A stretch of 64,000 nucleotides of DNA from Euglena gracilis (Eukaryota), in assembly GCA_039621445.1 (NCBI GenBank), contig CP154954.1:18710642-18774641 (forward strand). The letters run 5' to 3'. Position 1 is the stretch's first letter. Each line of letters starts with the position of its first letter. Made by a program: the position numbers and the translations under genes. The notes beneath the pieces were generated by a model. It did not search any database. It saw nothing but the letters and a program-made list of their open reading frames with translations, and had not been told where the DNA came from. Positions 459-41,148 of this stretch are shown in pieces.

Positions 459-791
459 GTGCGAACTGCTGCAGAGATTCCTTTTGGACAGAATATAAAA
501 GGCCGAAAATTGTTTCAAAAAAAGACAAATGGCAGCTGCATGGATGGGAGTAGAGGGTGACTATACTCTGACAGCATTATTATACATGACTAAAAGGTAG
601 AGATACTGGCCGGGAAATGGGGCGAGATTGTGACGTGGATGTGTATATGAATGCAGAACTGCAATGGTGTCAACAAAGGGTGTCTACACGGGCCAGAATG
701 GGTTTGGAGGGAGCCCAACCTGGGACGAAGGGTTGGGGGACGGGCAGTTGCTGAATTGGTGTTGGCGGGGGCGGACGGATGGTGTCCTCCT

Positions 792-867
792 GGCAGCGGT
801 GATGACCCCCAAGTCCCCAGAGTCATCGCATGATGGATGGTCAAACCTCAGAGAAGTCTGAGCTGCC
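792..867 (+). ncRNA. Box C/D snoRNA A (first of 20 copies)
   Basis: Terminal stem GGCAGC(792-797)/GCTGCC(862-867); C box GTGATGA 799-805; D' CAGA 818-821; C' ATGATGG 830-836; D box CTGA 858-861; 76 nt. Confidence 0.88.
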
Positions 868-934
868 CCCTGGAAGATTGTTCCCGGTTGGGCGGGGTGT
901 GGGCTGGGCCGGGGTCGGCATTGGTTTCGCTTTT

Positions 935-989
935 AGCGCACACGAAATCGCACAGCACAACAGGTGCGCACGCACACGGGCGCAGAGAC
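935..989 (+). ncRNA. Candidate single-hairpin AGA-box (H/ACA-like) RNA (first copy; one per unit)
   Basis: Upper stem CGCAC/GTGCG (or GCGCAC/GTGCGC), short lower stem, AGA at 984-986 lying 14-15 nt from the 3' pocket start. The fold is ambiguous. Confidence 0.45.
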
Positions 990-1050
990 ACAGACCCAGA
1001 CCCAGGCGGGAAGGGGGGTTGGGGAGGAGGTGTGGTAACCAACCTGCATG

Positions 1051-1127
1051 GGGGCTCGATGATGCCAACCCACAAGTCTTCTGCTCTGTAATGCACATCT
1101 CAACTTGGTCGATGCTACTGAGGCCCC
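1051..1127 (+). ncRNA. Box C/D snoRNA B (first of ~19 copies)
   Basis: Terminal stem GGGGCT/GGCCCC; C box ATGATGC 1059-1065; internal C'-like GTGATGC in most copies; D box CTGA 1118-1121; 77 nt. Confidence 0.8.
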
Positions 1128-1187
1128 TGGAACACCTGTTTGGTCGTGTTCCCGCACGACAGGTGATTTTTTTTTCCAAGGCTGATT

Positions 1188-1263
1188 GGGGCCCGTCCTT
1201 TTCTGTTACAGCCTGCGCATTGGACGGGTGACGTTGCTGGCTGGAAAATGGGGGTTGAGAGGG
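1188..1263 (+). ncRNA. Weak candidate AGA-box hairpin RNA, apparent paralogue of the 1464-1527 RNA
   Basis: Shares GCTGGCYGGAAAATGGGG..GAGA 3' arm with the 1464-1527 hairpin; CCCAT/ATGGG (CCCGT in this first copy) and CAGC/GCTG stems; AGA at 1258-1260. Confidence 0.35.
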
Positions 1264-1463
1264 CTGGCCGCGGGGTGTGGCTGCGTGGAATGGCGGCTGT
1301 TTTGGCCGCAGTCACTCCAGCGAGCAGGAGGCAGGGCCATGGGTGGTTGGCTCACCACCAACTGCGTGTTGGTGGTGAGATTTTTTCACGCAAAAAAAAG
1401 CATATTCATCCACACCCACAAACACTGTGTGGTTGTGGGTTGGTGTGGGGGGGAGGGGTTGGC

Positions 1464-1527
1464 AGCCTTAATATCCTCCAGCACGCCAATCCGATGGTGC
1501 TGCTGGCCGGAAAATGGGGCGAGATTG
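1464..1527 (+). ncRNA. Single-hairpin AGA-box pseudouridylation guide RNA (first complete copy; one per unit)
   Basis: Lower stem GCCTTA/TGGGGC, pocket ATATCCT / CCGGAAAA, upper stem CCAGCA-CGCCA/TGGTG-c-TGCTGG; AGA (1522-1524) 15 nt from the 3' pocket start, with the RNA end placed 3 nt after it. Confidence 0.7.
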
Positions 1528-3198
1528 TGACGTGGATGTTTACAGGAATGCAGAACAGCAATGGTGTCAACAAAGGGTGTCTACACGGGCCGGACTGGGT
1601 TTGGAGGGAGCCCAACCTGGGACGAAGGGTTGGGGGATGGGCAGTTGCTGAATTGGTGTTGGCGGGGGCGGACGGATGGTGTCCTCCTGGCAGCGGTGAT
1701 GACCCCCAAGTCCCCAGAGTCATCGCATGATGGATGGTCAAACCTCAGAGACGTCTGAGCTGCCCCCTGGAGAATTGTTCCCGGTTGGGTGGGGTGTGGG
1801 CTGGGCCGGGGTCGGCATTGGTTTCGCTTTTAGCGCACACGAAATCGCACAGCACAACAGGTGCGCACGCACACGGGCGCAGAGACACAGACCCAGACCC
1901 AGGCGGGAAGGGGGGTTGGGGAGGAGGTGTGGTAACCAACCCGCATGGGGGCTCGATGATGCCAACCCACAAGTCTTCTGCTCTGTGATGCACATCTCAA
2001 CTTGGTCGATGCTACTGAGGCCCCTGGAACACCTGTTTGGTCGTGTTCCCGCACGACAGGTGATTTTTTTTTTCAAGGCTGATTGGGGCCCATCCTTTTC
2101 TGTTACAGCCTGCGCATTGGACGGGTGACGTTGCTGGCTGGAAAATGGGGGTTGAGAGGGCTGGCCGCGGGGTGTGGCTGCGTGGAATGGCGGCTGTTTT
2201 GGCCGCAGTCACTCCAGCGAGCAGGAGGCAGGGCCATGGGTGGTTGGCTCACCACCAACTGCGTGTTGGTGGTGAGATTTTTTCACGCAAAAAAAGCATA
2301 TTCATCCACACCCACAAACACTGTGTGGTTGTGGGTTGGTGTGGGGGGGGGGGGTGGCAGCTTTAATATCCTCCAGCACGCCAATCCGATGGTGCTGCTG
2401 GCCGGAAAATGGGGCGAGATTGTGACGTGGATGTTTACAGGAATGCAGAACAGCAATGGTGTCAACAAAGGGTGTCTACACGGGCCGGACTGGGTTTGGA
2501 GGGAGCCCAACCTGGGACGAAGGGTTGGGGGACGGGCAGTTGCTGAATTGGTGTTGGCGGGGGCGGACGGATGGTGTCCTCCTGGCAGCAGTGATGACCC
2601 CCAAGTCCCCAGAGTCATCGCATGATGGATGGTCAAACCTCAGAGATGTCTGAGCTGCCCCCTGGAGGATTGTTCCCGGTTGGGTGGGGTGTGGGCTGGG
2701 CCGGGGTCGGCATTGGTTTCGCTTTTAGCGCACACGAAATCGCACAGCACAACAGGTGCGCACGCACACGGGCGCAGAGACACAGACCCAGACCCAGGCG
2801 GGAAGGGGGGTTGGGGAGGAGGTGTGGTGACCAACCCGCATGGGGGCTCGATGATGCCAACCCACAAGTCTTCTGCTCTGTGATGCACATCTCAACTTGG
2901 TCGATGCCACTGAGGCCCCTGGAACACCTGTTTGGTCGTGTTCCTGCACGACAGGTGATTTTTCTTTTCAAGGCTGATTGGGGCCCATCCTTTTCTGTTA
3001 CAGCCTGCGCATTGGACGGGTGACGTTGCTGGCTGGAAAATGGGGGTTGAGAGGGCTGGCCGCGGGGTGTGGCTGCGTGGAATGGCGGCTGTTTTGGCCG
3101 CAGTCACTCCAGCGAGCAGGAGGCAGGGCCATGGGTGGTTGGCTCACCACCAGCTGCGTGTTGGTGGTGAGATTTTTTCACGCAAGCATATTCATCCA

Positions 3199-6100
3199 CT
3201 TAGGCGGCCTAATTCGCACTTAAGCTTTTTTCGTTTGATTTGCGCACTTGCGCAAATTTACGATTTTTTTGATTGTGCTTCGTTTTGGCTGTGAAAGTCA
3301 GGGGGTTTGAAAACACGTGAACAAGAGAGTGCAAAAAACGACCGAAATTCTGATTTTGGCTGGGAAACCCCCGGGACTTTGGCGAAAAATGGTGTTTTTG
3401 AGGTGTGTCGGGAAGGACTTTGTGGGCCCAAACCCCCGGGACCCTGCCGGCCGAAACTGAAAAAAACGCAAAAAAGCACCATAGGAACGGGACCTTTACT
3501 GCCCCTGTTGCTTCTTTTGGCTGTGTCCCCGGGTGTGTCCGAGCTGCCGGCGGTGTGCGTCCTGGGTGTTTGCCGGGCTGCGTTGCTTGCGACACCTTGG
3601 TGTGGTGTTTTGGGGCTATATGTTAAAGTGCGGGGAGGAAGGTGCCGGGGGGTGTGGGTGTGGTGTGACCAAGCCGGCGGGAAGGACACAGGGGAAGGAA
3701 GGTGAGTACGGGGTGTTTGAGAAGGAATGCGTAGAGGGTGAAGAAACGGGGTCCGCAGGGAATGAAGGGACTGAAGGGGATGGGTGTCTCCCACCCGGCT
3801 TATACCCGGGATGCACACAACCAGTGGTGTGGCAATGAACCCAGCGGAAGAAGCCCAACACTGGAAGGGCAAAATCGCGTTTGATGCGCGCAATTGCGCG
3901 CATCAACATGTTTATGTTGATGCGCGCAATTGCGCAAATGCGCACAATTATGTCCTTCTGGGGATTGGGCTTTGACACCCTGAATTGATGCTGTTGATAA
4001 ACGGTGTGACAAAGGAGCTGTGAGTGGGCAGTCCAAAGGCCGTCCAGTTGATGAGTTTTATCTCACTGTTTGTCAACGGCGCAAGCTGATGGGCGCAAAT
4101 GCGCGCATCAAACACAAAACATGTTTATGTGCGCATTTGCGCAAATGCGCGCATCAAACGTGTTTTGTGTTTGATGCGCGCATTTGCGCCCATAAACGCA
4201 AAGAAGAACGGTGTGATGGAAACACAGCCGTCAAACACCGACAGCGGAAGTGGTTTATTTGCGCATTTGCACGCATCACGTTGTTTGTGGGCGCAAATGC
4301 GCAAATAAAACAGATGTAAATTGTTCAGTTTACATCTGTTTTATTTGCGCATTTGCGCCCACAAAACAACGTGATGCGCGCAAATGCGCAAATAAACCAC
4401 TAATGAAGGAGTAGAAAACGATTGCATTTGCCTCTCCTGTAACTACCCTTAGTGGCTTCTGAATGGGTTCAACCCAAACGACCACACCGTCCCCTCCGGC
4501 ATATGGTGTTATTGTGCCGTTTTTGGACCATTGACAGGTCCGGCAAAAGATGGAGACATAGCATCTTTTGAAGGTGGGTGCACAGCCACCCAGTAACGGT
4601 GCACCTCCACCGGCACCAATTTTTGGGTCCCAAGGGCCCTGCAGCTGACCTGTGGCTTCGGCTCCGCTGCTGCAGCCCCATCAGCTGCTGATGCTTCAGC
4701 ACCCAACAGGCCGGCATTGACCTCCCCGGTGCAACGACACCCACCACAGCGGCCACGTTATACCCCGCAACCGGGGTGTAAGACTGGGGGGACGACGTGG
4801 TGCCAGTGCATGGCAACCAGCAGCCGAAGAGAGGTGGCCCTCAAACACCCGTTACTTTGGGTACAAGGAAGTGTTGAAGCTTTACCCCTGGATTGGACGC
4901 ATCAAAGCGGTGGGACCCACTCCCCCCAAATTATGCAGAAAAACCGGCGTTTTTTACATATTTCAAGGGAGAAATGGCAAAGAAAACCGTAAAACGGACT
5001 CTGGCCGGACACATCCCGGGTGTTTCAGGTGCCAAATTTTGTCTTCCTGTGACGCAGTCCTGTTGCACAAAAGGTGTCAAACAGTCACCGGTCGTTTGCA
5101 CGTCATCAATTCATTACGTTTAACTGCCAAACACATGACGTCAAAACAACAGGCCGTTCGGGCCGGGGAACAGCAGTGCACATGTACACACCCAAGGCAG
5201 GCAAGTTTTGGCCAGTCACATGCCGTGTTCCAGTGAACACTCCACACTGCCTCTCACCACCAATTTCATCGCCACGTAACCTTGGAGCAAATCAATGGTT
5301 GGCGTGAGGAATTGTGTTCGCCAGCCGTCACGAAGCAGCAGATGGTATCCCACAACTGATGTGTTTTGATGCGCGCATTTGCGCAAATCAACAAACTTTG
5401 TTTGTGTGCTCTAAGGGCCCTACAAACACATTATTTTGAAGCGGTTTATTAACATGTTAATGCGCGCATTTGCGCAAATGCGCGCATCAACAAAATTATG
5501 TTTATTTGCGCAATTGCGCGCATCAACACGTCCACCACGGTTTTAAACCTTCTAAGTCATGGTCCTCATTGGTGTCTTTTAACATGGAAGGTAAACGTAC
5601 GTGTTTATGGGCGCAAATGCGCGCATCAACAAATTTGTTTATGCGCGCATTTGCGCAAATGCGCACACCACCAAACGTGTTGGTGCGCGCACTGGCGCCC
5701 ATAAACAGGTCATTTTATCATCAACAGTTGACGTTTACGTTTTATTTGCGCAAATGCGCCCATCAAACACAATTGTTTTTATTTGCGCAATTGCGCGCAT
5801 AAACACACATCAGTTGCGTGGCGGCTGCCTCACGTAGTCTGTGTGTCTGTGGTGGCGTTATCTAGTAAGACTCAGTTCTCACCGGTGGCGGCAGTGTCCA
5901 AGCCAGTTCAGCCAGCAGTTGAGCACCGTTTCCAAGTGTCATCACAAGGGGTGTGTGCCTCTCTCCCGTTTGATGTACAACAGCACAAGTCTCACCCCCA
6001 GCCCTATTAACGTCACCCGGTAAGCAGCATGCACACCAGACCACTGGGAGTTAATCCCCTCCAGTGGAGGGGTGTCATAGCTCATAAATCGTGTTCCGGC

Positions 6101-6200
6101 TGTCAGGGTACAGGGTCCCAGGGGTTACAAAAAATCGTGGATTTGCGCAATTGCGCAAATCAAAAGGAAAAAAGCTTAAGTGCGAATTAGGCCGCCTAAG
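3199..6200. mobile_element. Non-autonomous TIR DNA transposon (3.0 kb), superfamily unassigned
   Basis: ~70-bp TIRs starting CTTAGGCGGCCTAATTCGCACTTAAGC; 5-bp TSD ATCCA (3194-3198, 6201-6205) confirmed against empty sites in neighbouring units; interior rich in TTGCGCAA/ATGCGCGCA motifs; no transposase ORF recognised. Confidence 0.9.
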
Positions 6201-7110
6201 ATCCACACCCACAAACACTGTGTGGTTGTGGGTTGGTGTGGGGGGGAGGGGTTGGCAGCCTTAATATCCTCCAGCACGCCAATCCGATGGTGCTGCTGAC
6301 CGGAAAATGGGGCGAGATTGTGACGTGGATGTTTACAGGAATGCAGAACAGCAATGGTGTCAACAAAGGGTGTCTACACGGGCCAAACTGGGTTTGGAGG
6401 GAGCCCAACCTGGGACGAAGGGTTGGGGGATGGGCAGTTGCTGAATTGGTGTTGGCAGGGGCGGACGGATGGTGTCCTCCTGGCAGCGGTGATGACCCCC
6501 AAGTCCCCAGAGTCATCGCATGATGGATGGTCAAACCTCAGAGAAGTCTGAGCTGCCCCCTGGAGGATTGTTCCCGGTTGGGTGGGGTGTGGGCTGGGCC
6601 GGGGTCGGCATTGGTTTCGCTTTTAGCGCACACGAAATCGCACAGCACAACAGGTGCGCACGCACACGGGCTCAGAGACGCAGACCCAGACCCAGGCGGG
6701 AAGGGGGGTTGGGGAGGAGGTGTGGTAACCAACCCGCATGGGGGCTCGATGATGCCAACCCACAAGTCTTCTGCTCTGTGATGCACATCTCAACTTGGTC
6801 GATGCTACTGAGGCCCCTGGAACACCTGTTTGGTCGTGTTCCCGCACGACAGGTGATTTTTTTTTCAAGGCTGATTGGGGCCCATCCTTTTCTGTTACAG
6901 CCTGCGCATTGGACGGGTGACGTTGCTGGCTGGAAAATGGGGGTTGAGAGGGCTGGCCGTGGGGTGTGGCTGCGTGGAATGGCGGCTGTTTTGGCCGCAG
7001 TCACTCCAGCGAGCAGGAGGCAGGGCCATGGGTGGTTGGCTCACCACCAACTGCGTGTTGGTGGTGAGATTAAAAAAAAAAAAAAAAAGCATATTCATCC
7101 ACACCCACAA

Positions 7111-8027
7111 CAGGGATCCTCATACGTCCTGAAAAGGAAATTCACGGAAATTCACGGAGGATCACGGAAATGGGCAGAAGACCATTTTCACGGAAATCAC
7201 GGAAATTCACGGATGAGGCGGAGGGTTCGGAAAATTTTTCGCTCTTTTTGGAATGTGCTTTTTTTGTGCAGATGCATTTTTGATGGGATGTTCTGCACAT
7301 TCTCTGCCTTTCCAAACAGACAATCGCGCAAGCAAAACCTCATTCAGACAATCACAGATGATTTTGTGGCCGCTTTCCTCCATTCTGGTCTCCCGGTCAC
7401 AAAACTGGACCACAAAAGCATCAGAGGTGTTCTCCAGAAATACACACAAATTGAGGGTGTGTGGGTTTTTTGCTTATTCGGAAAATGACCTCCCACCTTT
7501 CCGCCCAGGCTGCATCCAGAAGGGTCAATCGCTACATCGGTCCGCTGACAGGGTTTTGGCAACCCATTTTGGGACAATCAAGAAAAAAAATTCAATTTTT
7601 CCCAAATTTTTTTCTCAGTTTTTCAAAACAAAAATCAATTTTTCCCCCTCCTGTACGTTTTTTATTTTCATATCCAGGTGTGGACAGGAACTGATGAATG
7701 TATTAAGAGTTCGGGGCATGCGATCATAAACATTTTGTTGGGTATGCGGGAAGGTCTACGTTGTAGCATGCGTTCAGTTGGGTTGCAAAGGGCCAAACTT
7801 GGGTCGGAATTGGCTTCAGCTGTCCTGGAGCCCTGGAGGATCTCCAGGACTATAATTTGGAGAAACAATCTTTGCTGCCACAACTGCCCAAATATGGCTC
7901 CGGTGCAGAATGGAATGTGGCTCTTGACCTTTTCTGGAAACAGGAAATTCACGGAAAATCACGGAAAATCACGGAAAATCACGGATACATTTTGGCCTCG
8001 GCCAGCACGGACATGTGAGGATCCCTG
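7111..8027 (+). mobile_element. Internally deleted hAT-like (CGGBP1-type) transposon
   Basis: 19-bp TIR CAGGGATCCTCA(T/C)A(C/T)GTCC; 7-bp TSD CCCACAA; subterminal TCACGGAAA repeats; coding remnants ..DDFVAAFLHSGLPVTKLDHKSIRGVLQKY.. and ..VWTGTDECIKSSGHAIINILLG.. Confidence 0.85.
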
Positions 8028-11000
8028 CCCACAAACACTGTGTGGTTGTGGGTTGGTGTGGGGGGGGGGGGGGTGGCAGCCTTAATATCCTCCAGCACGC
8101 CAATCCGATGGTGCTGCTGGCCGGAAAATGGGGCGAGATTGTGACGTGGATGTTTACAGGAATGCAGAAGAGCAATGGTGTCAACAAAGGGTGTCTACAC
8201 GGGCCAAACTGGGTTTGGAGGGAGCCCAACCTGGGACGAAGGGTTGGGGGATGGGCAGTTGCTGAATTGGTGTTGGCGGGGGCGGACGGATGGTGTCCTC
8301 CTGGCAGCGGTGATGACCCCCAAGTCCCCAGAGTCATCGCATGATGGATGGTCAAACCTCAGAGAAGTCTGAGCTGCCCCCTGGAGGATTGTTCCCGGTT
8401 GGGTGGGGTGTGGGCTGGGCCGGGGTCGGCATTGGTTTCGCTTTTAGCGCACGCAAAATCGCACAGCACAACAGGTGCGCACGCACACGGGCGCAGAGAC
8501 ACAGACCCAGACCCAGGCGGGAAGGGGGGTTGGGGAGGAGGTGTGGTAACCAACCCGCATGGGGGCTCGATGATGCCAACCCACAAGTCTTCTGCTCTGT
8601 GATGCACATCTCAACTTGGTCGATGCTACTGAGGCCCCTGGAACACCTGTTTGGTCGTGTTCCCGCACGACAGGTGATTTTTTTTTTTATGGCTGATTGG
8701 GGCCCATCCTTTTCTTTTACAGTCTGCGCTTTGGATGGGTGTCGTTGCTTGCTGGGAAATGGGGGTTGAGCGGGCTGGCCGCGGGGTGTGGCTGCGTGGA
8801 ATGGCGGCTGTTTTGGCCGCAGTCACTCCAGCGAGCAGGAGGCAGGGCCATGGGTGGTTGGCTCACCACCAACTGCGTGTTGGTGGTGAGATTTTTTCAC
8901 GCAAAAAAAGCATATTCATCCACACCCACAAACACTGTGTGGTTGTGGGTTGGTGTGGGGGGGGGGGGGGGGGCAGCCTTAATATCCTCCAGCACGCCAA
9001 TCCGATGGTGCTGCTGGCCGGAAAATGGGGCGAGATTGTGACGTGGATGTTTACAGGAATGCAGAACAGCAATGGTGTCAACAAAGGGTGTCTACACGGG
9101 CCAAACTGGGTTTGGAGGGAGCCCAACCTGGGACGAAGAGTTGGGGGACGGGCAGTTGCTGAAGAGGTGTTGGCGGGGGCGGACGGATGGTGTCCTCCTG
9201 GCAGCGGTGATGACCCCCAAGTCCCCAGAGTCATCGCATGATGGATGGTCAAACCTCAGAGAAGTCTGAGCTGCCCCCTGGAAGATTGTTCCCGGTTGGG
9301 CGGGGTGTGGGCTGGGCCGGGGTCGGCATTGGTTTCGCTTTTAGCGCACACGAAATCGCACAGCACAACAGGTGCGCACGCACACGGGCGCAGAGACACA
9401 GACCCAGACCCAGGCGGGAAGGGGGGTTGGGGAGGAGGTGTGGTGACCAACCCGCATGGGGGCTCGATGATGCCAACCCACAAGTCTTCTGCTCTGTGAT
9501 GCACATCTCAACTTGGTCGATGCTACTGAGGCCCCTGGAACACCTGTTTGGTCGTGTTCCTGCACGACAGGTGCTTTTTTCTTTCAAGGCTGATTGGGGC
9601 CCATCCTTTTCTGTTACAGCCTGCGCATTGGACGGGTGACGTTGCTGGCTGGAAAATGGGGGTTGAGAGGGCTGGCCGCGGGGTGTGGCTGCGTGGAATG
9701 GCGGCTGTTTTGGCCGCAGTCACTCCAGCGAGCAGGAGGCAGGGCCATGGGTGGTTGGCTCACCACCAACTGCGTGTTGTGGGTGAGATTTTTTTCACGC
9801 AAAAAAGCATATTCATCCACACCCACAAACACTGTGTGGTTGTGGGTTGGTGTGGGGGGGGGTGGCAGCCTTAATATCCTCCAGCACGCCAATCCGATGG
9901 TGCTGCTGGCCGGAAAATGGGGCGAGATTGTGACGTGGATGTTTACAGGAATGCAGAACAGCAATGGTGTCAACAAAGGGTGTCTACACGGGCCAAACTG
10001 GGTTTGGAGGGAGCCCAACCTGGGACGAAGGGTTGGGGGACGGGCAGTTGCTGAAGAGGTGTTGGCGGGGGCGGACGGATGGTGTCCTCCTGGCAGCGGT
10101 GATGACCCCCAAGTCCCCAGAGTCATCGCATGATGGATGGTCAAACCTCAGAGAAGTCTGAGCTGCCCCCTGGAGGATTGTTCCCGGTTGGGCGGGGTGT
10201 GGGCTGGGCCGGGGTCGGCATTGGTTTCGCTTTTAGCGCACACGAAATCGCACAGCACAACAGGTGCGCACGCACACGGGCGCAGAGACACAGACCCAGA
10301 CCCAGGCGGGAAGGGGGGTTGGGGAGGAGGTGTGGTGACCAACCCGCATGGGGGCTCGATGATGCCAACCCACAAGTCTTCTGCTCTGTGATGCACATCT
10401 CAACTTGGTCGATGCTACTGAGGCCCCTGGAACACCTGTTTGGTCGTGTTTCCGCACGACAGGTGATTTTTTTTTTCAAGGCTGATTGGGGCCCATCCTT
10501 TTCTGTTACAGCCTGCGCATTGGACGGGTGACGTTGCTGGCTGGAAAATGGGGGTTGAGAGGGCTGGCCGCGGGGTGTGGCTGCGTGGAATGGCGGCTGT
10601 TTTGGCCGCAGTCACTCCAGCGAGCAGGAGGCAGGGCCATGGGTGGTTGGCTCACCACCAACTGCGTGTTTGTGGTGAGATTTTTTCACAAAAAAAAAAG
10701 CATATTCATCCACACCCACAAACACTGTGTGGTTGTGGGTTGGTGTGGGGGGGAGGGGTTGGCAGCCTTAATATCCTCCAGCACGCCAATCCGATGGTGC
10801 TGCTGGCCGGAAAATGGGGCGAGATTGTGACGTGGATGTTTACAGGAATGCAGAACAGCAATGGTGTCAACAAAGGGTGTCTACACGGGCCAAACTGGGT
10901 TTGGAGGGAGCCCAACCTGGGACGAAGGGTTGGGGGACGGGCAGTTGCTGAAGAGGTGTTGGCAGGGGCGGACGGATGGTGTCCTCCTGGCAGCGGTGAT

Positions 11001-14000: not shown

Positions 14001-17000
14001 TGCACATCTCAACTTGGTCGATGCTACTGAGGCCCCTGGAACACCTGTTTGGTCGTGTTCCCGCACGACAGGTGACTTTTTTTTCAAGGCGGATGGGGGC
14101 CAATCCTTTTTCTGTTACAGCCTGCGCATTGGACGGGTGACGTTGCTGGCTGGAAAATGGGGGTTGAGAGGGCTGGCCGCGGGGTGTGGCTGCGTGGAAT
14201 GGCGGCTGTTTTGGCCGCAGTCACTCCAGCGAGCAGGAGGCAGGGCCATGGGTGGTTGGCTCACCACCAACTGCGTGTTGGTGGTGAGATTTTTTCACGC
14301 AAAAAAAGCATATTCATCCACACCCACAAACACTGTGTGGTTGTGGGTTGATGTGGAGGGGGAAGCGGGTGAGGGGTTGGCAGCCTTAATATCCTCCAGC
14401 ACGCCAATCCGATGGTGCTGCTGGCCGGAAAATGGGGCGAGATTGTGACGTGGATGTTTACAGGAATGCAGAACAGCAATGGTGTCAACAAAGGGTGTCT
14501 ACACGGGCCAAACTGGGTTTGGAGGGAGCCCAACCTGGGACGAAGGGTTGGGGGACGGGCAGTTGCTGAAGAGGTGTTGGCGGGGCGGACGGATGGTGTC
14601 CTCCTGGCAGCGGTGATGACCCCCAAGTCCCCAGAGTCATCGCATGATGGATGGTCAAACCTCAGAGAAGTCTGAGCTGCCCCCTGGAATTGTTCCCGGT
14701 TGGGCGGGGTGTGGGCTGGGCCGGGGTCGGCATTGGTTTCGCTTTTAGCGCACACGAAATCGCACAGCACAACAGGTGCGCACGCACACGGGCGCAGAGA
14801 CACAGACCCAGACCCAGGCGGGAAGGGGGGTTGGGGAGGAGGTGTGGTGACCAACCCGCATGGGGGCTCGATGATGCCAACCCACAAGTCTTCTGCTCTG
14901 TGATGCACATCTCAACTTGGTCGATGCTACTGAGGCCCCTGGAACACCTGTTTGGTCGTGTTCCCGCACGACAGGTGATTTTTTTTTTCAAGGCTGATTG
15001 GGGCCCATCCTTTTCTGTTACAGCCTGCGCATTGGACGGGTGACGTTGCTGGCTGGAAAATGGGGGTTGAGAGGGCTGGCCGCGGGGTGTGGCTGCGTGG
15101 AATGGCGGCTGTTTTGGCCGCAGTCACTCCAGCGAGCAGGAGGCAGGGCCATGGGTGGTTGGCTCACCACCAACTGCGTGTTGGTGGTGAGATTTTTTCA
15201 CGCAAAAAACCACGTTCATCCACACCCACAAACACTGTGTGGTTGTGGGTTGGTGTGTGGGGGGGTTGGCAGCCTTAATATCCTCCAGCACGCCAATCCG
15301 ATGGTGCTGCTGGCCGGAAAATGGGGCGAGATTGTGACGTGGATGTTTACAGGAATGCAGAACAGCAATGGTGTCAACAAAGGGTGTCTACACGGGCCAA
15401 ACTGGGTTTGGAGGGAGCCCAACCTGGGACGAAGGGTTGGGGGATGGGCAGTTGCTGAAGAGGTGTTGGCGGGGGCGGACGGATGGTGTCCTCCTGGCAG
15501 CGGTGATGACCCCCAAGTCCCCAGAGTCATCGCATGATGGATGGTCAAACCTCAGAGAAGTCTGAGCTGCCCCCCCGGAGGATTGTTCCCGGTTGGGTGG
15601 GGTGTGGGCTGGGCCGGGGTCGGCATTGGTTTCGCTTTTAGCGCACACGAAATCGCACAGCACAACAGGTGCGCACGCACACGGGCGCAGAGACACAGAC
15701 CCAGACCCAGGCGGGAAGGGGGGTTGGGGAGGAGGTGTGGTGACCAACCCGCATGGGGGCTCGATGATGCCAACCCACAAGTCTTCTGCTCTGTGATGCA
15801 CATCTCAACTTGGTCGATGCTACTGAGGCCCCTGGAACACCTGTTTGGTCGTGTTCCCGCACGACAGGTGATTTTTTTTTCAAGGCTGATTGGGGCCCAT
15901 CCTTTCTGTTACAGCCTGCGCATTGGACGGGTGACGTTGCTGGCTGGAAAATGGGGGTTGAGAGGGCTGGCCGTGGGGTGTGGCTGCGTGGAATGGCGGC
16001 TGTTTTGGCCGCAGTCACTCCAGCGAGCAGGAGGCAGGGCCATGGGTGGTTGGCTCACCACCAACTGCGTGTTGGTGGTGAGATTTTTTCACGCAAAAAA
16101 AAGCATATTCATCCACACCCACAAACACTGTGTGGTTGTGGGTTGGTGTGGGGGGGGGGGTGGCAGCCTTAATATCCTCCAGCACGCCAATCCGATGGTG
16201 CTGCTGGCCGGAAAATGGGGCGAGATTGTGACGTGGATGTTTACAGGAATGCAGAACAGCAATGGTGTCAACAAAGGGTGTCTACACGGGCCAAACTGGG
16301 TTTGGAGGGAGCCCAACCTGGGACGAAGGGTTGGGGGACGGGCAGTTGCTGAAGTGGTGTTGGCGGGGGCGGACGGATGGTGTCCTCCTGGCAGCGGTGA
16401 TGACCCCCAAGTCCCCAGAGTCATCGCATGATGGATGGTCAAACCTCAGAGAAGTCTGAGCTGCCCCCTGGAGGATTGTTCCCGGTTGGGTGGGGTGTGG
16501 GCTGGGCCGGGGTCGGCATTGGTTTCGCTTTTAGCGCACACGAAATCGCACAGCACAACAGGTGCGCACGCACACGGGCGCAGAGACACAGACCCAGACC
16601 CAGGCGGGAAGGGGGGTTGGGGAGGAGGTGTGGTAACCAACCCGCATGGGGGCTCGATGATGCCAACCCACAAGTCTTCTGCTCTGTGATGCACATCTCA
16701 ACTTGGTCGATGCTACTGAGGCCCCTGGAACACCTGTTTGGTCGTGTTCCCGCACGACAGGTGATTTTTTTTTCAAGGCTGATTGGGGCCCATCCTTTTC
16801 TGTTACAGCCTGCGCATTGGACGGGTGACGTTGCTGGCTGGAAAATGGGGGTTGAGAGGGCTGGCCGCGGGGTGTGGCTGCGTGGAATGGCGGCTGTTTT
16901 GGCCGCAGTCACTCCAGCGAGCAGGAGGCAGGGCCATGGGTGGTTGGCTCACCACCAACTGCGTGTTGGTGGTGAGATTTTTTCACGCAAAAAAAGCATA

Positions 17001-20000
17001 TTCATCCAGACCACAAACACTGTGTGGTTGTGGGTTGGTGTGGGGGGGAGGGGTTGGCAGCCTTAATATCCTCCAGCACGCCAATCCGATGGTGCTGCTG
17101 GCCGGAAAATGGGGCGAGATTGTGACGTGGATGTTTACAGGAATGCAGAACAGCAATGGTGTCAACAAAGGGTGTCTACACGGGCCAAACTGGGTTTGGA
17201 GGGAGCCCAACCTGGGACGAAGGGTTGGGGGACGGGCAGTTGCTGAAGAGGTGTTGGCAGGGGCGGACGGATGGTGTCCTCCTGGCAGCGGTGATGACCC
17301 CCAAGTCCCCAGAGTCATCGCATGATGGATGGTCAAACCTCAGAGAAGTCTGAGCTGCCCCCTGGAAGGATTGTTCCCGGTTGGGCGGGGTGTGGGCTGG
17401 GCCGGGGTCGGCATTGGTTTCGCTTTTAGCGCACACGAAATCGCACAGCACAACAGGTGCGCACGCACACGGGCGCAGAGACACAGACCCAGACCCAGGC
17501 GGGAAGGGGGGTTGGGGAGGAGGTGTGGTAACCAACCCGCATGGGGGCTCGATGATGCCAACCCACAAGTCTTCTGCTCTGTGATGCACATCTCAACTTG
17601 GTCGATGCTACTGAGGCCCCTGGAACACCTGTTTGGTCGTGTTCCCGCACGACAGGTGATTTTTTTTTCAAGGCTGATTGGGGCCCATCCTTTTCTGTTA
17701 CAGCCTGCGCATTGGACGGGTGACGTTGCTGGCTGGAAAATGGGGGTTGAGAGGGCTGGCCGCGGGGTGTGGCTGCGTGGAATGGCGGCTGTTTTGGCCG
17801 CAGTCACTCCAGCGAGCAGGAGGCAGGGCCATGGGTGGTTGGCTCACCACCAACTGCGTGTTGGTGGTGAGATTTTTTCACGCAAAAAAGCATATTCATC
17901 CACCCCACAAACACTGTGTGGTTGTGGGTTGGTGTGGGGGGGAGGGGTTGGCAGCCTTAATATCCTCCAGCACGCCAATCCGATGGTGCTGCTGGCCGGA
18001 AAATGGGGCGAGATTGTGACGTGGATGTTTACAGGAATGCAGAACAGCAATGGTGTCAACAAAGGGTGTCTACACGGGCCAAACTGGGTTTGGAGGGAGC
18101 CCAACCTGGGACGAAGGGTTGGGGGACGGGCAGTTGCTGAAGAGGTGTTGGCAGGGGCGGACGGATGGTGTCCTCCTGGCAGCGGTGATGACCCCCAAGT
18201 CCCCAGAGTCATCGCATGATGGATGGTCAAACCTCAGAGAAGTCTGAGCTGCCCCCTGGAAGATTGTTCCCGGTTGGGCGGGGTGTGGGCTGGGCCGGGG
18301 TCGGCATTGGTTTCGCTTTTAGCGCACACGAAATCGCACAGCACAACAGGTGCGCACGCACACGGGCGCAGAGACACAGACCCAGACCCAGGCGGGAAGG
18401 GGGGTTGGGGAGGAGGTGTGGTAACCAACCCGCATGGGGGCTCGATGATGCCAACCCACAAGTCTTCTGCTCTGTGATGCACATCTCAACTTGGTCGATG
18501 CTACTGAGGCCCCTGGAACACCTGTTTGGTCGTGTTCCCGCACGACAGGTGCTTTTTTTTTTCAAGGCTGATTGGGGCCCATCCTTTTCTGTTACAGCCT
18601 GCGCATTGGACGGGTGACGTTGCTGGCTGGAAAATGGGGGTTGAGAGGGCTGGCCGCGGGGTGTGGCTGCGTGGAATGGCGGCTGTTTTGGCCGCAGTCA
18701 CTCCAGCGAGCAGGAGGCAGGGCCATGGGTGGTTGGCTCACCACCAACTGCGTGTTGGTGGTGAGATTTTTTCACGCAAAAAAAAGCATATTCATCCACC
18801 CCACAAACACTGTGTGGTTGTGGGTTGGTGTGGGGGGGGGGGGGTGGCAGCCTTAATATCCTCCAGCACGCCAATCCGATGGTGCTGCTGGCCGGAAAAT
18901 GGGGCGAGATTGTGACGTGGATGTTTACAGGAATGCAGAACAGCAATGGTGTCAACAAAGGGTGTCTACACGGGCCAAACTGGGTTTGGAGGGAGCCCAA
19001 CCTGGGACGAAGGGTTGGGGGACGGGCAGTTGCTGAAGAGGTGTTGGCAGGGGCGGACGGATGGTGTCCTCCTGGCAGCGGTGATGACCCCCAAGTCCCC
19101 AGAGTCATCGCATGATGGATGGTCAAACCTCAGAGAAGTCTGAGCTGCCCCCTGGAAGATTGTTCCCGGTTGGGCGGGGTGTGGGCTGGGCCGGGGTCGG
19201 CATTGGTTTCGCTTTTAGCGCACACGAAATCGCACAGCACAACAGGTGCGCACGCACACGGGCGCAGAGACACAGACCCAGACCCAGGCGGGAAGGGGGG
19301 TTGGGGAGGAGGTGTGGTAACCAACCCGCATGGGGGCTCGATGATGCCAACCCACAAGTCTTCTGCTCTGTGATGCACATCTCAACTTGGTCGATGCTAC
19401 TGAGGCCCCTGGAACACCTGTTTGGTCGTGTTCCCGCACGACAGGTGCAAGGCTGATTGGGGCCCATCCTTTTCTGTTACAGCCTGCGCATTGGACGGGT
19501 GACGTTGCTGGCTGGAAAATGGGGGTTGAGAGGGCTGGCCGCGGGGTGTGGCTGCGTGGAATGGCGGCTGTTTTGGCCGCAGTCACTCCAGCGAGCAGGA
19601 GGCAGGGCCATGGGTGGTTGGCTCACCACCAACTGCGTGTTGGTGGTGAGATTTTTTCACGCAAAAAAAAGCATATTCATCCACCCCACAAACACTGTGT
19701 GGTTGTGGGTTGGTGTGGGGGGGGGGGTGGCAGCCTTAATATCCTCCAGCACGCCAATCCGATGGTGCTGCTGGCCGGAAAATGGGGCGAGATTGTGACG
19801 TGGATGTTTACAGGAATGCAGAACAGCAATGGTGTCAACAAAGGGTGTCTACACGGGCCAAACTGGGTTTGGAGGGAGCCCAACCTGGGACGAAGGGGTG
19901 GGGGAGGTGCAGTTTCTGAAGAGGTGTTGGCGGGGTCGGACTGATGGTGTCCTCCTGGCAGCGGTGATGACCCCCAAGTCCCCAGAGTCATCGCATGATG

Positions 20001-22353
20001 GATGGTCAAACCTCAGAGAAGTCTGAGCTGCCCCCTGGAAGATTGTTCCCGGTTGGGCGGGGTGTGGGCTGGGCCGGGGTCGGCATTGGTTTCGCTTTTA
20101 GCGCACACGAAATCGCACAGCACAACAGGTGCGCACGCACACGGGCGCAGAGACACAGACCCAGACCCAGGCGGGAAGGGGGGTTGGGGAGGAGGTGTGG
20201 TAACCAACCCGCATGGGGGCTCGATGATGCCAACCCACAAGTCTTCTGCTCTGTGATGCACATCTCAACTTGGTCGATGCTACTGAGGCCCCTGGAACAC
20301 CTGTTTGGTCGTGTTCCCGCACGACAGGTGCTTTTTTTTTTCAAGGCTGATTGGGGCCCATCCTTTCTGTTACAGCCTGCGCATTGGACGGGTGACGTTG
20401 CTGGCTGGAAAATGGGGGTTGAGAGGGCTGGCCGCGGGGTGTGGCTGCGTGGAATGGCGGCTGTTTTGGCCGCAGTCACTCCAGCGAGCAGGAGGCAGGG
20501 CCATGGGTGGTTGGCTCACCACCAACTGCGTGTTGGTGGTGAGATTTTTTCACGCAAAAAAAGCATATTCATCCACCCCACAAACACTGTGTGGTTGTGG
20601 GTTGGTGTGGGGGGGGGGGGTGGCAGCCTTAATATCCTCCAGCACGCCAATCCGATGGTGCTGCTGGCCGGAAAATGGGGCGAGATTGTGACGTGGATGT
20701 TTACAGGAATGCAGAACAGCAATGGTGCCAACAACAGGGTGTCACACGGGCCAAACTGGGTTTGGAGGGAGCCCAACCTGGGACGAAGGGTTGGGGGACG
20801 GGCAGTTGCTGAAGAGGTGTTGGCGGGGGCGGACGGATGGTGTCCTCCTGGCAGCGGTGATGACCCCCAAGTCCCCAGAGTCATCGCATGATGGATGGTC
20901 AAACCTCAGAGAAGTCTGAGCTGCCCCCTGGAAGATTGTTCCCGGTTGGGCGGGGTGTGGGCTGGGCCGGGGTCGGCATTGGTTTCGCTTTTAGCGCACA
21001 CGAAATCGCACAGCACAACAGGTGCGCACGCACACGGGCGCAGAGACACAGACCCAGACCCAGGCGGGAAGGGGGGTTGGGGAGGAGGTGTGGTAACCAA
21101 CCCGCATGGGGGCTCGATGATGCCAACCCACAAGTCTTCTGCTCTGTGATGCACATCTCAACTTGGTCGATGCTACTGAGGCCCCTGGAACACCTGTTTG
21201 GTCGTGTTCCCGCACGACAGGTGATTTTTTTTTTCAAGGCTGATTGGGGCCCATCCTTTTCTGTTACAGCCTGCGCATTGGACGGGTGACGTTGCTGGCT
21301 GGAAAATGGGGGTTGAGAGGGCTGGCCGCGGGGTGTGGCTGCGTGGAATGGCGGCTGTTTTGGCCGCAGTCACTCCAGCGAGCAGGAGGCAGGGCCATGG
21401 GTGGTTGGCTCACCACCAACTGCGTGTTGGTGGTGAGATTTTTTCACGCAAAAAAAGCATATTCATCCACACCCACAAACACTGTGTGGTTGTGGGTTGG
21501 TGTGGAGGTGGGGTTGTAGGTCTATGTTTGTGGTTGTGCTGTAATTTTAGTAGTTGTTCTTCTGTTTTTTTTGTTTATTTGGGGGGTTGGGGCGGGGGTG
21601 GGGGGGGACTGGGGAGTGGCAGCTTTAATATCCTCCAGCACGCCAATCCGATGGTGCTGCTGGCCGGAAAATGGGGCGAGATTGTGACGTGGATGTTTAC
21701 ATGAATGCAGAACAGCAATGGTGTCAACAAAGGGTGTCCACACGGGCCAAACTGGGTTTGGAGGGAGCCCAACCTGGGACGAAGGGTTGGGGGACGGGCA
21801 GTTGCTGAAGTGGTGTTGGCGGGGGCGGACGGATGGTGTCCTCCTGGCAGCGGTGAGGACCCCCAAGTCCCCAGAGTCATCGCATGATGGATGGTCAAAC
21901 CTCAGAGAAGTCTGAGCTGCCCCTCCGGAGGATTGTTCCCGGTTGGGTGGGGTGTGGGCTGGGCCGGGGTCGGCATTGGTTTCGCTTTTAGCGCACACGA
22001 AATCGCACAGCACAACAGGTGCGCACGCACACAGGCGCAGAGACACAGACCTGGAGGTGTTGGAGGAGGAGATGGTGACCGTGTTGCCAGCGTGCTTGTT
22101 CCCTTGGAACACCTGTCCGTTCATGCCGCCAGACATGAAGTTTATTGCAATTTTTTTGTGATCCACCCATTTCTATTGAAGCCTGCGCATTGGACGTTAT
22201 GCTTGATGAACCTTTGTGCTGTCATTATTATTTCTTTGGGGGTTAGCTTTGGTTGCTTTGGTTGCATTCGGTTGCTTTCAGTCAGCATTAATTATTTTAT
22301 ATTTCGCACCCCGCTTGGTGCGGGTCATGCATCTCTGCCATGGGTGGCCGCAG

Positions 22354-22493
22354 GTGGTGGACCGGTGCATCCTGTCCATGGTCAACGAGGCGGCCCGCAT
22401 CTTGGAGGAGAAGATCGCGGAGTGCCCTGAGGACGTGGACCTGGGGATGGTGTTTGGCACCGGCTTCGCCCCGTTCCGGGGAGGCCTCCTGAG
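22354..22493 (+). CDS. HADHA: Trifunctional enzyme alpha subunit exon
   Basis: VVDRCILSMVNEAARILEEKIAECPEDVDLGMVFGTGFAPFRGGLL; AG/GT borders; ends in phase 2. Confidence 0.92.
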
Positions 22494-22917
22494 GTGGCCC
22501 CCATCCATTCCCTGTGACCCCTTATATCGAACCCTTCCCACAACTCACCCTTTTTCCAGTCATCTTGCAAAAAAAAACTGCCAATTTTTTCCGGGCCGTT
22601 TTCAGATTTGGCAATTTTTCGGTTTCCAATTCTGTCGGTTCTAATTTTATCTAGCCCCAATTCCCCCCCCCCCAGTAAAAGGTCAGCAAGCACATTTTTT
22701 GAGTTTTGGGAGGATGGGCGATGGTCAGAAATCATTTTCCCCCATTTTTGCCAAAGTATGCCAATTTGCGGCCGGTTTTCTTGTGGATTTTGCATTTATT
22801 ATGCTGGGACGGAATTTTTTTCCCACTGAGGACCAACCTGGTGGGGGGGATCCCCACCCTAAAAAAGAATCCCTGATGGAGAAGCCCGGGGATGAGAGCA
22901 TGCACCGCCCCTCACAG

Positions 22918-41132: not shown

Positions 41133-41148
41133 GCTGCATTGACTTCAA
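39208..41148 (-). CDS. DIRS ORF1 (gag-like), overlapping pol in another frame
   Basis: 646-aa open frame at the element's 5' end; P/Q/G/R-rich with a repeated RRPIQGLWQP motif; no diagnostic domain recognised. Confidence 0.55.
   Translation of the reverse strand: MKSMQHVEKKLELSSRQPGHSAEQETPAGELGDAVSTWRTVAITSPPHISEENFQRQTATHSDGHGPWQTVGKKPRRQRKTLGTQGQDPLHFKLGCRKPSKLADPAKRANAPAHRANAPNQSRWNKGQGGQYDIGKPEDGPVWSRRPIQGLWQPTGRGKRGLYQPFFSNSAHNPIPGGRGEAQQQGSPRFQLGMARSQNLQPRPWRPEQKGLGSRRPIQGLWQPYKGWTSRGPPEAKGQPHRGFVFNKCPAPGGTGGRGRTPTSIYSSIFKSPSEIKKGGTHRGPPMVWIPTPSSSRRPDRQNRGSKPYGMHSNNKILQRESEKRGECMHTPPGKLSLSKGSSPRGPKGAMSNTPSPAPPKSSYPGNKFHGGEMGRHPPPSKVAKKLEMVDKKCRPNNMSTYQGWHSTPLGKPTKIVHPPKNQSKFEPTPSRKNTAGLRKIWIRKEGEGFNHPAPDPLVSDFKTRGGTDHMEVNKRLQGNKSKVPSETFQAGSHPAHFSSVGKRPLGIQNRPKGCLLPHTSEPGPKAIFKASGGGADLGIPGRLFWPKYNAPNFYVSNEDIRKAVEKKGHPGIYLPGRHFTGGPNTKHLTKSPEHSRQGFNQIRVQNQCEKVHPAAQPNRKSSWISAKLPRGKITGAPPENKNRKK

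Follow-up and report, generated by a model that had tools for sequence, protein, structure and literature searches.

The 64-kb stretch of Euglena gracilis DNA analysed here (the window) carries on its + strand a host gene, two consecutive exons of which enclose an intron containing a long tandem array. The exon at 280–458, in frame from 282, matches the final part of the 3-hydroxyacyl-CoA dehydrogenase C-terminal domain at a sub-threshold score (Pfam PF00725, 16.2 bits, E 0.016), and the next exon, at 22354–22493, matches the first part of a second such domain (PF00725, 23.6 bits, E 7.8e-5, cut-off 22.1). By its domain content, the host is a predicted 3-hydroxyacyl-CoA dehydrogenase family gene with 3HCDH C-terminal domains, in agreement with the beta-oxidation gene proposed in the initial annotation. 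The intron spans 21,895 bp (459–22353, + strand), opening with GT at 459–460 and closing with AG at 22352–22353.

Transcript evidence came from contigs of four RNA runs; such contigs carry no information on RNA ends, strand or level. Contigs from runs X13, X16 and X17 cover 279–461 with loose ends on both sides, and in all three runs the loose end past 461 reads as window position 22357 onward, the letters at 459–461 being the same as those at 22354–22356. Spliced transcript contigs of three studies carry the 458|22354 joint, which places the array inside a genuine GT-AG intron. Splice sites, reading frame and contigs thus agree on the single 21.9-kb intron with in-frame flanking exons that had been read from the sequence, and the two exons belong to one gene rather than two, as the spliced contigs of the three studies join them. 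Several GT-AG introns at the locus are confirmed by spliced contigs.

A blastn comparison of positions 600–1499 with the 64-kb window returned 20 head-to-tail units of ~894 bp, all on the + strand, extending from 600 to 22051 with an inter-unit identity of 93–98%; this bears out the 20 copies of a ~895-bp repeat on the host strand described initially. The unit consensus is 895 nt long. Nineteen of the 20 units are complete, two of them being split by insertions, while unit 20 is truncated at consensus position 397, and unit 19 contains an 80-bp filler unlike the repeat (21517–21596). Tandem Repeats Finder, run with a longest period of 500, missed the ~894-bp units for that reason alone. All predicted RNA genes described below lie on the + strand, as does the host gene, so the placement on the host strand in the initial annotation is correct. 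The chance expectation for a host-sense orientation is 50%.

Two insertions interrupt the array. A transposon-like element of 3 kb (3199–6200) splits unit 3 and has 38-nt terminal inverted repeats (TIRs) and a 5-bp target duplication, ATCCA; a MITE-like element of 917 bp (7111–8027) splits unit 4 and has 19-nt TIRs and a 7-bp target duplication, CCCACAA. The 3′ end of the intron (22052–22353, + strand) is occupied by a diverged unit remnant lacking C/D gene 2, represented by two collinear consensus matches: 22163–22196 corresponds to consensus 588–621 (85% identity, E 9e-7), and a second, weak match links 22337–22347 to consensus 731–741 (E 0.23).

These features bear on the possibility that the repeat is real but that its copy number, or its position between the exons, was made by the assembler. 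Long near-identical tandem repeats are difficult to assemble, and the short-read contigs do collapse the array into one circular unit. However, both array edges run into unique intron sequence within the window, the diverged remnant lies in the 3′ flank beside exon 22354, and the units carry private substitutions, indels and two distinct transposons with target duplications, which collapse or duplication would not invent. An artefact of this kind is therefore very improbable. The array probably arose where it now lies, by unequal crossing-over that multiplied one intronic cassette, with the two transposon insertions arriving later.

A motif scan for box C/D RNAs over both strands of the whole 64-kb window identified 36 candidates, all 36 in the array and on the + strand: 17 of a first RNA and 19 of a second. 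There were no candidates on the − strand, in the other 41.6 kb of the window or in either insertion, and the mean over 3000 shuffled units was 0.0027 candidates per unit. This C/D architecture far exceeds chance expectation and keeps to a single strand. In both RNAs, the C box lies near the 5′ end and the D box near the 3′ end, with a short terminal stem, as in box C/D RNAs generally.

C/D RNA 1 (example copy 792–867, +) reads, in order, as a 6-bp stem, C box GUGAUGA, a 12-nt D′ guide, D′ box CAGA, C′ box UGAUGG, the D guide and D box CUGA. C/D RNA 2 (example copy 1051–1127, +) has a 6-bp stem, C box AUGAUGC, in which the last A of RUGAUGA is replaced by C, D′ box CUGC, C′ box UGAUGC and D box CUGA; in its first copy the C′ box is UAAUGC. 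D′ and C′ boxes, judged by eye and unscored, are present in both RNAs, and both D′ boxes depart from CUGA. All 19 copies of C/D RNA 2 passed the scan and 17 of the 19 are identical, whereas 17 of the 20 copies of C/D RNA 1 passed at strict settings. The boxes and 6-bp stems described initially for the example copies were recovered, but their completeness does not extend to every copy: damage, in the form of an altered C box, an insertion of 7 nt together with guide changes, or a weakened stem, affects two or three of the 20 C/D RNA 1 copies. Target scans with a predicted target returned three non-rRNA loci in one case and no loci in another.

The third candidate is a single-hairpin, AGA-box (H/ACA-like) RNA gene that spans the unit boundary (1464–1527, +). 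It occurs in 19 copies, 15 of them identical. The hairpin folds at −27.4 kcal/mol (z −3.3), with none of 200 shuffles as stable, and a sliding fold of both strands placed this structure on the + strand alone. At a length of 64 nt, the RNA has its AGA at 1522–1524 followed by 3 nt to an assumed 3′ end, and an A at 1464 precedes stem I. Stem I has 6 bp (two of them G-U) and is separated from the AGA by 1 free nt; the pocket comprises 7 nt upstream and 8 nt downstream, giving a downstream side of 8 + 6 + 1 = 15 nt. Stem II, of 11 bp, contains a single bulge; at the pocket it runs for six unbroken pairs, and the apical loop measures 6 nt. The fold constrained to this layout has an energy of −23.1 kcal/mol.

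This layout agrees with all eight structural rules of the euglenozoan H/ACA-like model, as given in the available extracts of PMC2613932. There, a single hairpin of 57–91 nt carries the AGA 3 nt from its 3′ end and an A or C 1 nt before stem I; stem I has 5–8 bp without mismatch, followed by 1–3 free nt before the AGA; the upstream pocket is 5–11 nt, and the downstream pocket, stem I and spacer together make 13–16 nt; stem II begins at the pocket with 3–7 perfect pairs, and the apical loop has at least 5 nt (PMC2613932). The initial annotation's claim of at least one well-formed AGA-box hairpin is upheld by the z-score and these dimensions. By a cruder stem-count scan, AGA-hairpin-like layouts arise ~0.8 times per shuffled unit. 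A second AGA-like segment at 1195–1262 folded unconvincingly (z +0.37) and was rejected as an RNA gene.

Altogether, the array holds 20 + 19 + 19 = 58 gene copies of three candidate RNA species, ~54 of them intact, in place of the 60–100 guide RNAs estimated initially. Boxes and stems are intact in 17/20 copies of C/D RNA 1, 19/19 of C/D RNA 2 and 18/19 of the AGA RNA. Among copies, coding segments vary at 11 of 2983 cells versus 103 of 6829 for spacers, an approximately fourfold difference, although some spacer segments are as invariant as coding ones and the compared copies are not independent. A decaying satellite of snoRNA genes or pseudogenes, giving little or no functional RNA while functional copies reside elsewhere in the genome, could account for the two transposons tolerated inside the array and for the damaging changes in two or three copies of C/D RNA 1. 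Such decay is hard to square with the intact boxes and stems, with the lower variability of the coding segments, or with the position of both transposons in one common spacer segment, where no RNA gene was struck, and we regard it as quite improbable.

The candidate RNA genes thus lie in sense orientation within a contig-confirmed host intron, where intron-encoded RNAs would be located, and the predicted genes form the Euglena-type cluster layout of a mixed C/D and pseudouridine-guide unit, one-stranded and repeated in tandem. We estimate at roughly 70% the probability that the array is a euglenozoan-type tandem guide-gene cluster, comprising ~58 copies of three species, in sense within one intron of a multifunctional beta-oxidation enzyme gene. 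To the same degree, we favor a reading of each unit as two predicted box C/D guides for methylation plus a predicted single-hairpin AGA-box guide for pseudouridylation.

Contigs from three runs that also contain spliced mRNA traverse the whole unit and re-enter the next one, going back 897 positions, at a word depth of 13–19. This is what a multi-unit transcript would give, and it could also reflect DNA carry-over. The collapsed depth of the unit contigs is ~2.6% of exon depth. Each unit has two further hairpins with T-run tails. The first (1133–1175, +) lies just 3′ of C/D gene 2, is followed by a run of 9–10 T (−14.6 kcal/mol, z −2.4) and may be a processing or termination signal, or nothing. 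The second (1351–1385, +) has a 12-bp stem free of mismatches, with AGA and a T run behind it; the fold of 1330–1385 reaches −25.8 kcal/mol (z −3.0), and sliding-window z-scores fall to −4.6 on both strands.

One way to express such an array would be as a nested transcription unit, separate from the host gene around it, with its own promoter or promoters, per array or per unit, yielding a polycistronic precursor. Keller et al. in 1992 reportedly dealt with the SL-RNA and 5S rRNA repeats of Euglena. Tandem arrays of small-RNA genes that carry expression signals of their own are known in Euglena, and the two T-run-tailed hairpins could serve as terminators. RNA contigs cover the repeat and leave the unique intron start (462–605) uncovered, which would also suit a nested unit; at a per-copy depth below 1, this absence is uninformative. 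However, no promoter motif is known and none was found, there are no tRNA genes and no tRNA-like internal promoter nearby, and the array has the orientation of the host gene. The in-unit T runs would, moreover, stop RNA polymerase III early, yet the contigs span whole units. We therefore consider a nested transcription unit unlikely.

The most likely mechanism is expression through the host gene. Here, the host pre-mRNA made by RNA polymerase II would include the array, and every C/D kink-turn and AGA hairpin would be bound by snoRNP proteins. Endo- and exonucleases would then remove the spacers, acting on the intron after its excision or on the transcript while it is being made, so that a single long transcript would give many copies of three guides. 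We tentatively propose, at somewhat less than even odds, that the array lacks its own promoter and that each round of host transcription and splicing yields ~55 guide RNAs, ~19 per species. To our knowledge, the promoters of Euglena-type tandem snoRNA arrays have never been found; if the proposal is true, such arrays can be expressed as introns. It would also make this the largest snoRNA load known for one intron and tie the guide supply for a hyper-modified ribosome, with 349 rRNA modifications in Euglena (PMC7672448), to the expression of a metabolic gene.

According to the available part of PMC7671301, which summarises Moore & Russell 2012, snoRNA clusters of E. gracilis are tandemly repeated and polycistronically transcribed; by extracts of PMC2613932 and PMC7671301, the C/D and H/ACA-like genes of Euglena and trypanosomatids are clustered together, and their RNAs are processed out of polycistronic precursors. 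Like the Euglena clusters so outlined, the present unit mixes C/D and single-hairpin pseudouridine-guide genes in a short, one-stranded, head-to-tail arrangement; contigs of RNA runs cross its borders, as either a multi-unit transcript or DNA carry-over would. The clusters of Moore and Russell (2012) were reportedly obtained by PCR between snoRNA genes, with the flanking context absent. Unlike the Euglena clusters in the published material available, the present array is seen in its genomic setting, with every unit inside the same spliceosomal intron of a gene that encodes a protein. In trypanosomatids, where cis-spliced introns are all but absent, the snoRNA clusters lie between genes of polycistronic units, in contrast to this locus with its several contig-confirmed GT-AG introns. 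Taken together, the RNA types and the cis-spliced introns point most probably to a euglenid such as Euglena. The likeness to trypanosomatids, as far as the extracts of PMC2613932 go, lies in the mixing of C/D and H/ACA-like genes, processed there from long transcripts, and in the single hairpin with AGA 3 nt from the end and all dimensions within the published ranges (PMC2613932).

The presence of several sense-oriented snoRNA genes in one host intron, with release from the spliced intron presumed, recalls plant and algal clusters. Intronic snoRNA gene clusters were reportedly described in rice by Liang et al. in 2002 and in Chlamydomonas by Chen et al. in 2008. These hold a handful of different snoRNAs each, and a single cassette amplified 20-fold in tandem is not known to us among them. 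Mammalian SNORD115/SNORD116 arrays comprise dozens of tandem C/D copies in one long transcription unit (available portions of PMC3413130 and PMC12429941). The present array shares with them the dozens of tandem C/D snoRNA gene copies, the single long transcript being a proposal here. The SNORD115/SNORD116 repeat unit has its own exons, with one snoRNA per intron and a non-coding imprinted host, whereas here a single intron of a metabolic, protein-coding gene houses all the units, which mix C/D with H/ACA-like RNAs. The locus combines a Euglena-type tandem cluster with a plant/algal-type intronic cluster. The initial annotation knew of no described precedent; tandem Euglena clusters and intronic plant and Chlamydomonas clusters have both been published, and it is the combination and scale alone that look new, in a comparison that the key Euglena papers lie outside.

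Finally, the individual RNAs were compared with known families. A gathering-threshold Rfam scan of the whole window gave no matches; no Rfam family matched C/D RNA 2 significantly, and the AGA RNA had no significant family match. When a 931-nt stretch was compared with all 4227 families, C/D RNA 1 weakly matched snoU61 (RF01170; SNORD61/AtU61) at 24.6 bits (E 0.0075). C/D RNA 1 was not filed as a member because this score is below the family's gathering score of 55. In the parts of PMC11550049 and PMC8583080 available, U61-family RNAs direct modification of 18S rRNA at Um1442 (human) and Um1384 (Arabidopsis). C/D RNA 1 may work like snoU61. Unlike in snoU61, the guide of C/D RNA 1 differs at two positions and sits 1 nt closer to box D, and the D′ guide is unrelated. 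The alignment is full-length, covering the terminal stem and the C, C′ and D boxes as well as 10 of the 12 guide positions adjoining box D.

A blastn search of the window with positions 600–1499 recovered 20 units of approximately 894 bp, arranged head to tail on the + strand over 600–22051 and sharing 93–98% identity with the first unit; the tandem repeat of ~895 bp and about 20 copies proposed in the initial annotation is thus real. Tandem Repeats Finder gave no entry for this ~894-bp array because the longest period it reports is 500. Measured against a unit consensus of 895 nt, 19 units are complete, with units 3 and 4 each interrupted by an inserted element; unit 19 contains 80 bp of unlike filler, and unit 20 breaks off at position 397 of the consensus. 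The 300 bp separating unit 20 from the next exon of the host gene retain a diverged unit piece (22163–22196 against consensus 588–621, 85%), followed downstream by one further weak collinear unit match. The presence of this diverged piece at the 3′ edge of the intron suggests that the array expanded in place from a cassette already in the intron.

A box C/D gene was called where a C box was followed after 35–95 nt by a D box and the ends formed a terminal stem of 6 bp or more. The consensus unit contained exactly two such sites, both on the + strand, compared with a mean of 0.0027 sites per unit in shuffled units (n = 3000). Across the whole window the scan returned 36 sites, comprising 17 copies of RNA 1 and 19 copies of RNA 2, all of them in the array and on the + strand; the − strand, the remaining 41.6 kb of the window and the two insertions gave none. 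The two C/D RNAs with terminal stems expected in each unit were thereby recovered. Three RNA 1 copies fail the scan: one because its stem is weakened, another because it carries a 7-nt insertion and an altered guide, and the third because its C box is changed. RNA 1 (example copy 792–867, +) reads as stem, GUGAUGA, a 12-nt guide, CAGA, loop, UGAUGG, guide, CUGA and stem, and RNA 2 (example copy 1051–1127, +) as stem, AUGAUGC, guide, CUGC, UGAUGC, guide, CUGA and stem. Their D′ guides have 11 of 12 letters in common, so the two RNAs may be diverged paralogues, one gene derived from the other; the same comparison suggests that these guides would address similar, non-identical targets.

The third RNA of the unit is an AGA-box hairpin at 1464–1527, which crosses the unit boundary. 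Its fold has an energy of −27.4 kcal/mol (z = −3.3, none of 200 shuffled sequences being as stable), and a sliding-window scan found it structured on the + strand alone. The hairpin conforms to the published trypanosomatid H/ACA-like consensus (PMC2613932) in every structural rule: an A precedes a 6-bp stem I, with one free nucleotide ahead of the AGA; the upstream side of the pocket measures 7 nt, while downstream pocket, stem I and spacer together make 15 nt; the pocket is closed by six perfect pairs; and a 6-nt loop and a total of 64 nt place the AGA 3 nt from the end, the 3′ end being assumed. The element occurs in 19 copies, 15 of which are identical. A cruder explicit layout scan also finds 1464–1527, but shuffled units yield 0.8 sites each by chance; taken by itself, the layout is thus weak evidence for a gene, and the case rests on stability, strand specificity and conservation. 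On the + strand, an AGA-hairpin scan of the unit based on minimum free energy (MFE) came back empty, since the pocket is closed in the MFE fold. The well-formed AGA hairpin proposed for each unit is supported by its z-score, its restriction to the + strand and its conservation among copies. A second AGA-like segment at 1195–1262, similar to the 3′ half of this hairpin, was rejected as a confident gene (fold z = +0.37). Each unit thus holds three RNA species, giving 20 + 19 + 19 = 58 gene copies, about 54 of them intact.

Variation among the copies was compared in well-aligned columns only; misalignment around a G run makes the variation of the final 110 columns an artefact. Departures from the consensus affect 11 of 2983 cells in the two C/D genes and 103 of 6829 in the two large spacers, about four times the C/D rate (nominal p = 2e-7). 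The lower variation of the C/D genes is suggestive of constraint but falls short of proof, given the common descent of the copies and the presence of some spacer stretches that are just as invariant. A dead satellite is an unlikely reading: boxes and stems are intact in 17 of 20 RNA 1, 19 of 19 RNA 2 and 18 of 19 AGA copies, the C/D genes vary less than the spacers, and both inserted elements lie in a spacer.

The exon upstream of the array (280–458, +) is in frame from 282 and encodes the end of a 3-hydroxyacyl-CoA dehydrogenase C-terminal domain (PF00725, 16.2 bits, a score below the cut-off); the next exon (22354–22493, +) encodes the start of a second such domain (PF00725, 23.6 bits). Two of these domains in succession presumably fit a multifunctional beta-oxidation enzyme. 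We compared contigs of four public runs with 230–1510. In three runs, from three studies, a single contig covers 279–461 at a word depth of 468–718 and beyond that point its letters are the same as those from 22357 onward; these splice-joint contigs are 786–2567 nt long. Since 459–461 and 22354–22356 are the same three letters, the joint was placed at 458|22354 under the GT-AG rule. The two exons therefore belong, as had been proposed, to one gene whose spliced transcript skips 21,895 bp. AGA-box RNAs together with cis-spliced introns point to a euglenid as the source. An assembly artefact in the copy number or position of the repeat is unlikely: both array edges run on into unique intron sequence, a diverged unit piece adjoins the downstream exon, and the copies differ by private substitutions, indels and two different insertions with target duplications. 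The fourth run, a soil metatranscriptome, covers part of the exon only (279–388). Its contig joins the host exon to the same upstream exon letters as the culture runs, so the soil sample contains transcripts from this organism or one very closely related to it. If the following intron of the host gene (22494–22917) is read as GT-AG, the split codon AG|C gives Ser, where relatives have Arg in a conserved motif; the actual boundaries may accordingly lie elsewhere, or this may be a non-conventional intron of the euglenid kind.

The three runs that show the splice joint also yielded a further contig, which crosses the unit and re-enters the next one ("goes back 897") at a word depth of 13–19. Read-through of several units would give such unit-spanning contigs, as possibly would DNA carry-over. 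The depth of the array contig sums over about 20 collapsed copies and amounts to only about 2.6% of the exon depth. Contig data of this kind are blind to strand, RNA ends and small RNAs. We found no tRNA genes in the window. Every unit carries two stable folds that could be processing or termination signals: a hairpin followed by a T run (1133–1175) and a perfect 12-bp hairpin followed by AGA and T6 (1351–1385). One unit has a run of about 17 A in place of the T run and its neighbourhood (7070–7088).

The predicted guide RNAs would most likely arise by co-transcription of the array as part of the host pre-mRNA, snoRNPs assembling on every guide gene and nucleases trimming the spacers. We favour co-transcription because the array lies in the sense orientation within a confirmed intron, and because snoRNA clusters of euglenozoans and plants are known to be processed from long precursors (PMC2613932, PMC7671301). 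The main rival is that the array has its own promoter within the intron, which we regard as rather improbable; the stretch 462–605 between exon and array lacks contig cover and is uninformative here, as the expected depth is below 1x per copy.

At gathering thresholds, Rfam gave 0 matches over the whole window. In a permissive Rfam scan of one unit, RNA 1 aligned end to end with snoU61 (24.6 bits, E = 0.0075), with agreement in the terminal stem and in boxes C, C′ and D; of the 12 guide letters adjoining box D, 10 agree. At a score far under the gathering score of 55, RNA 1 was not filed as a member of the snoU61 family. PMC11550049 and PMC8583080 assign SNORD61 to human 18S Um1442 and AtU61 to the homologous Arabidopsis Um1384. 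The snoU61 match argues that the RNA 1 D guide, in which two letters are changed, would address the 18S site homologous to these. For RNA 2 and the AGA RNA, Rfam gave no significant match: the AGA hairpin reached ceN42 only at E = 3.1 and 0.42, RNA 2 reached SNORD116 only at E = 3.4, and both assignments were rejected. The unit has five candidate guide elements: 12 nt ahead of D′ and 12–16 nt ahead of D in RNA 1, 13–15 nt ahead of D′ and 15–17 nt ahead of D in RNA 2, and the pair of pocket strands of the AGA hairpin (1471–1477 and 1507–1514); the predicted targets are their reverse complements, which for the pocket strands would flank a uridine. The RNA 2 D′ guide beside a short universal SSU motif occurred at three loci in metagenome contigs, none of them rRNA; a gathering-threshold Rfam scan of these loci returned only one tRNA, and they were taken as chance hits. 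The RNA 1 D guide within 25–55 nt of a universal 18S primer site gave 0 loci in prokaryotic genome contigs, an uninformative collection for this purpose.

Intronic snoRNA clusters have reportedly been found in rice (Liang et al. 2002) and Chlamydomonas (Chen et al. 2008). Other published arrangements are tandem polycistronic snoRNA clusters in Euglena (PMC7671301), clusters mixing C/D and AGA RNAs in trypanosomatids (PMC2613932) and the mammalian SNORD115/116 arrays (PMC3413130, PMC12429941). Our literature search, which key Euglena and Chlamydomonas papers lay outside, found no description of a multi-copy tandem cassette in a single protein-coding-gene intron, in Euglena or elsewhere, and the novelty of this arrangement is provisional. 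To our knowledge, the mode of transcription of Euglena tandem snoRNA arrays is unsettled, and the locus offers a concrete case, with a whole array inside an intron that is spliced out of the transcript of an expressed protein-coding gene. The Euglena ribosome carries 349 rRNA modifications, the largest number reported (PMC7672448), and therefore needs a very large guide-RNA supply; the same paper names M12677, X01484, X02031 and X53361 as the rRNA records for Euglena gracilis. If the guides are processed from the intron, snoRNA dosage would be multiplied without multiplying promoters, and a metabolic gene would be tied to ribosome biogenesis. Should transcription of the array be independent, its first unit would be a place to seek the missing promoter. 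In both cases the locus makes a handy substrate for the study of snoRNA processing signals, because identical cassettes alternate with variable spacers.

The element in unit 3 (3199–6200, 3 kb) has 38-nt terminal inverted repeats (97%) and a 5-bp ATCCA target duplication, and looks like a non-autonomous DNA transposon; its interior is dense with palindromic copies of a ~20-nt motif based on GCGCAAATGCGCGC, and a repeat search counted 150 inverted pairs in it. The 917-bp MITE-like element in unit 4 (7111–8027) has 19-nt terminal inverted repeats and a 7-bp CCCACAA target duplication, with short 10-bp tandem repeats (GGAAAATCAC-like) immediately inside both ends. Both insertion points lie in one spacer segment, at most about 20 nt apart in unit position, which suggests a preferred insertion target in the CCACACCCACAAACAC spacer segment.

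Elsewhere in the window, a 1019-codon open frame at 38085–41144 (−) contains a reverse transcriptase domain (Pfam RVT_1, E = 1e-22). The open frames 36912–37904 and 29684–30376, neither with a Pfam match, have long near-identical protein stretches in common; the window therefore probably holds more than one copy of a retroelement family. Tandem repeats of ~162 bp occur at 42869–44594 and 43230–43551 (5.6 and 2.2 copies, 95% matches) with a 17-copy array of a 19-bp unit between them, and related sequence around 45800–46300 and 52600–53000 lies in open frames with near-identical translations.
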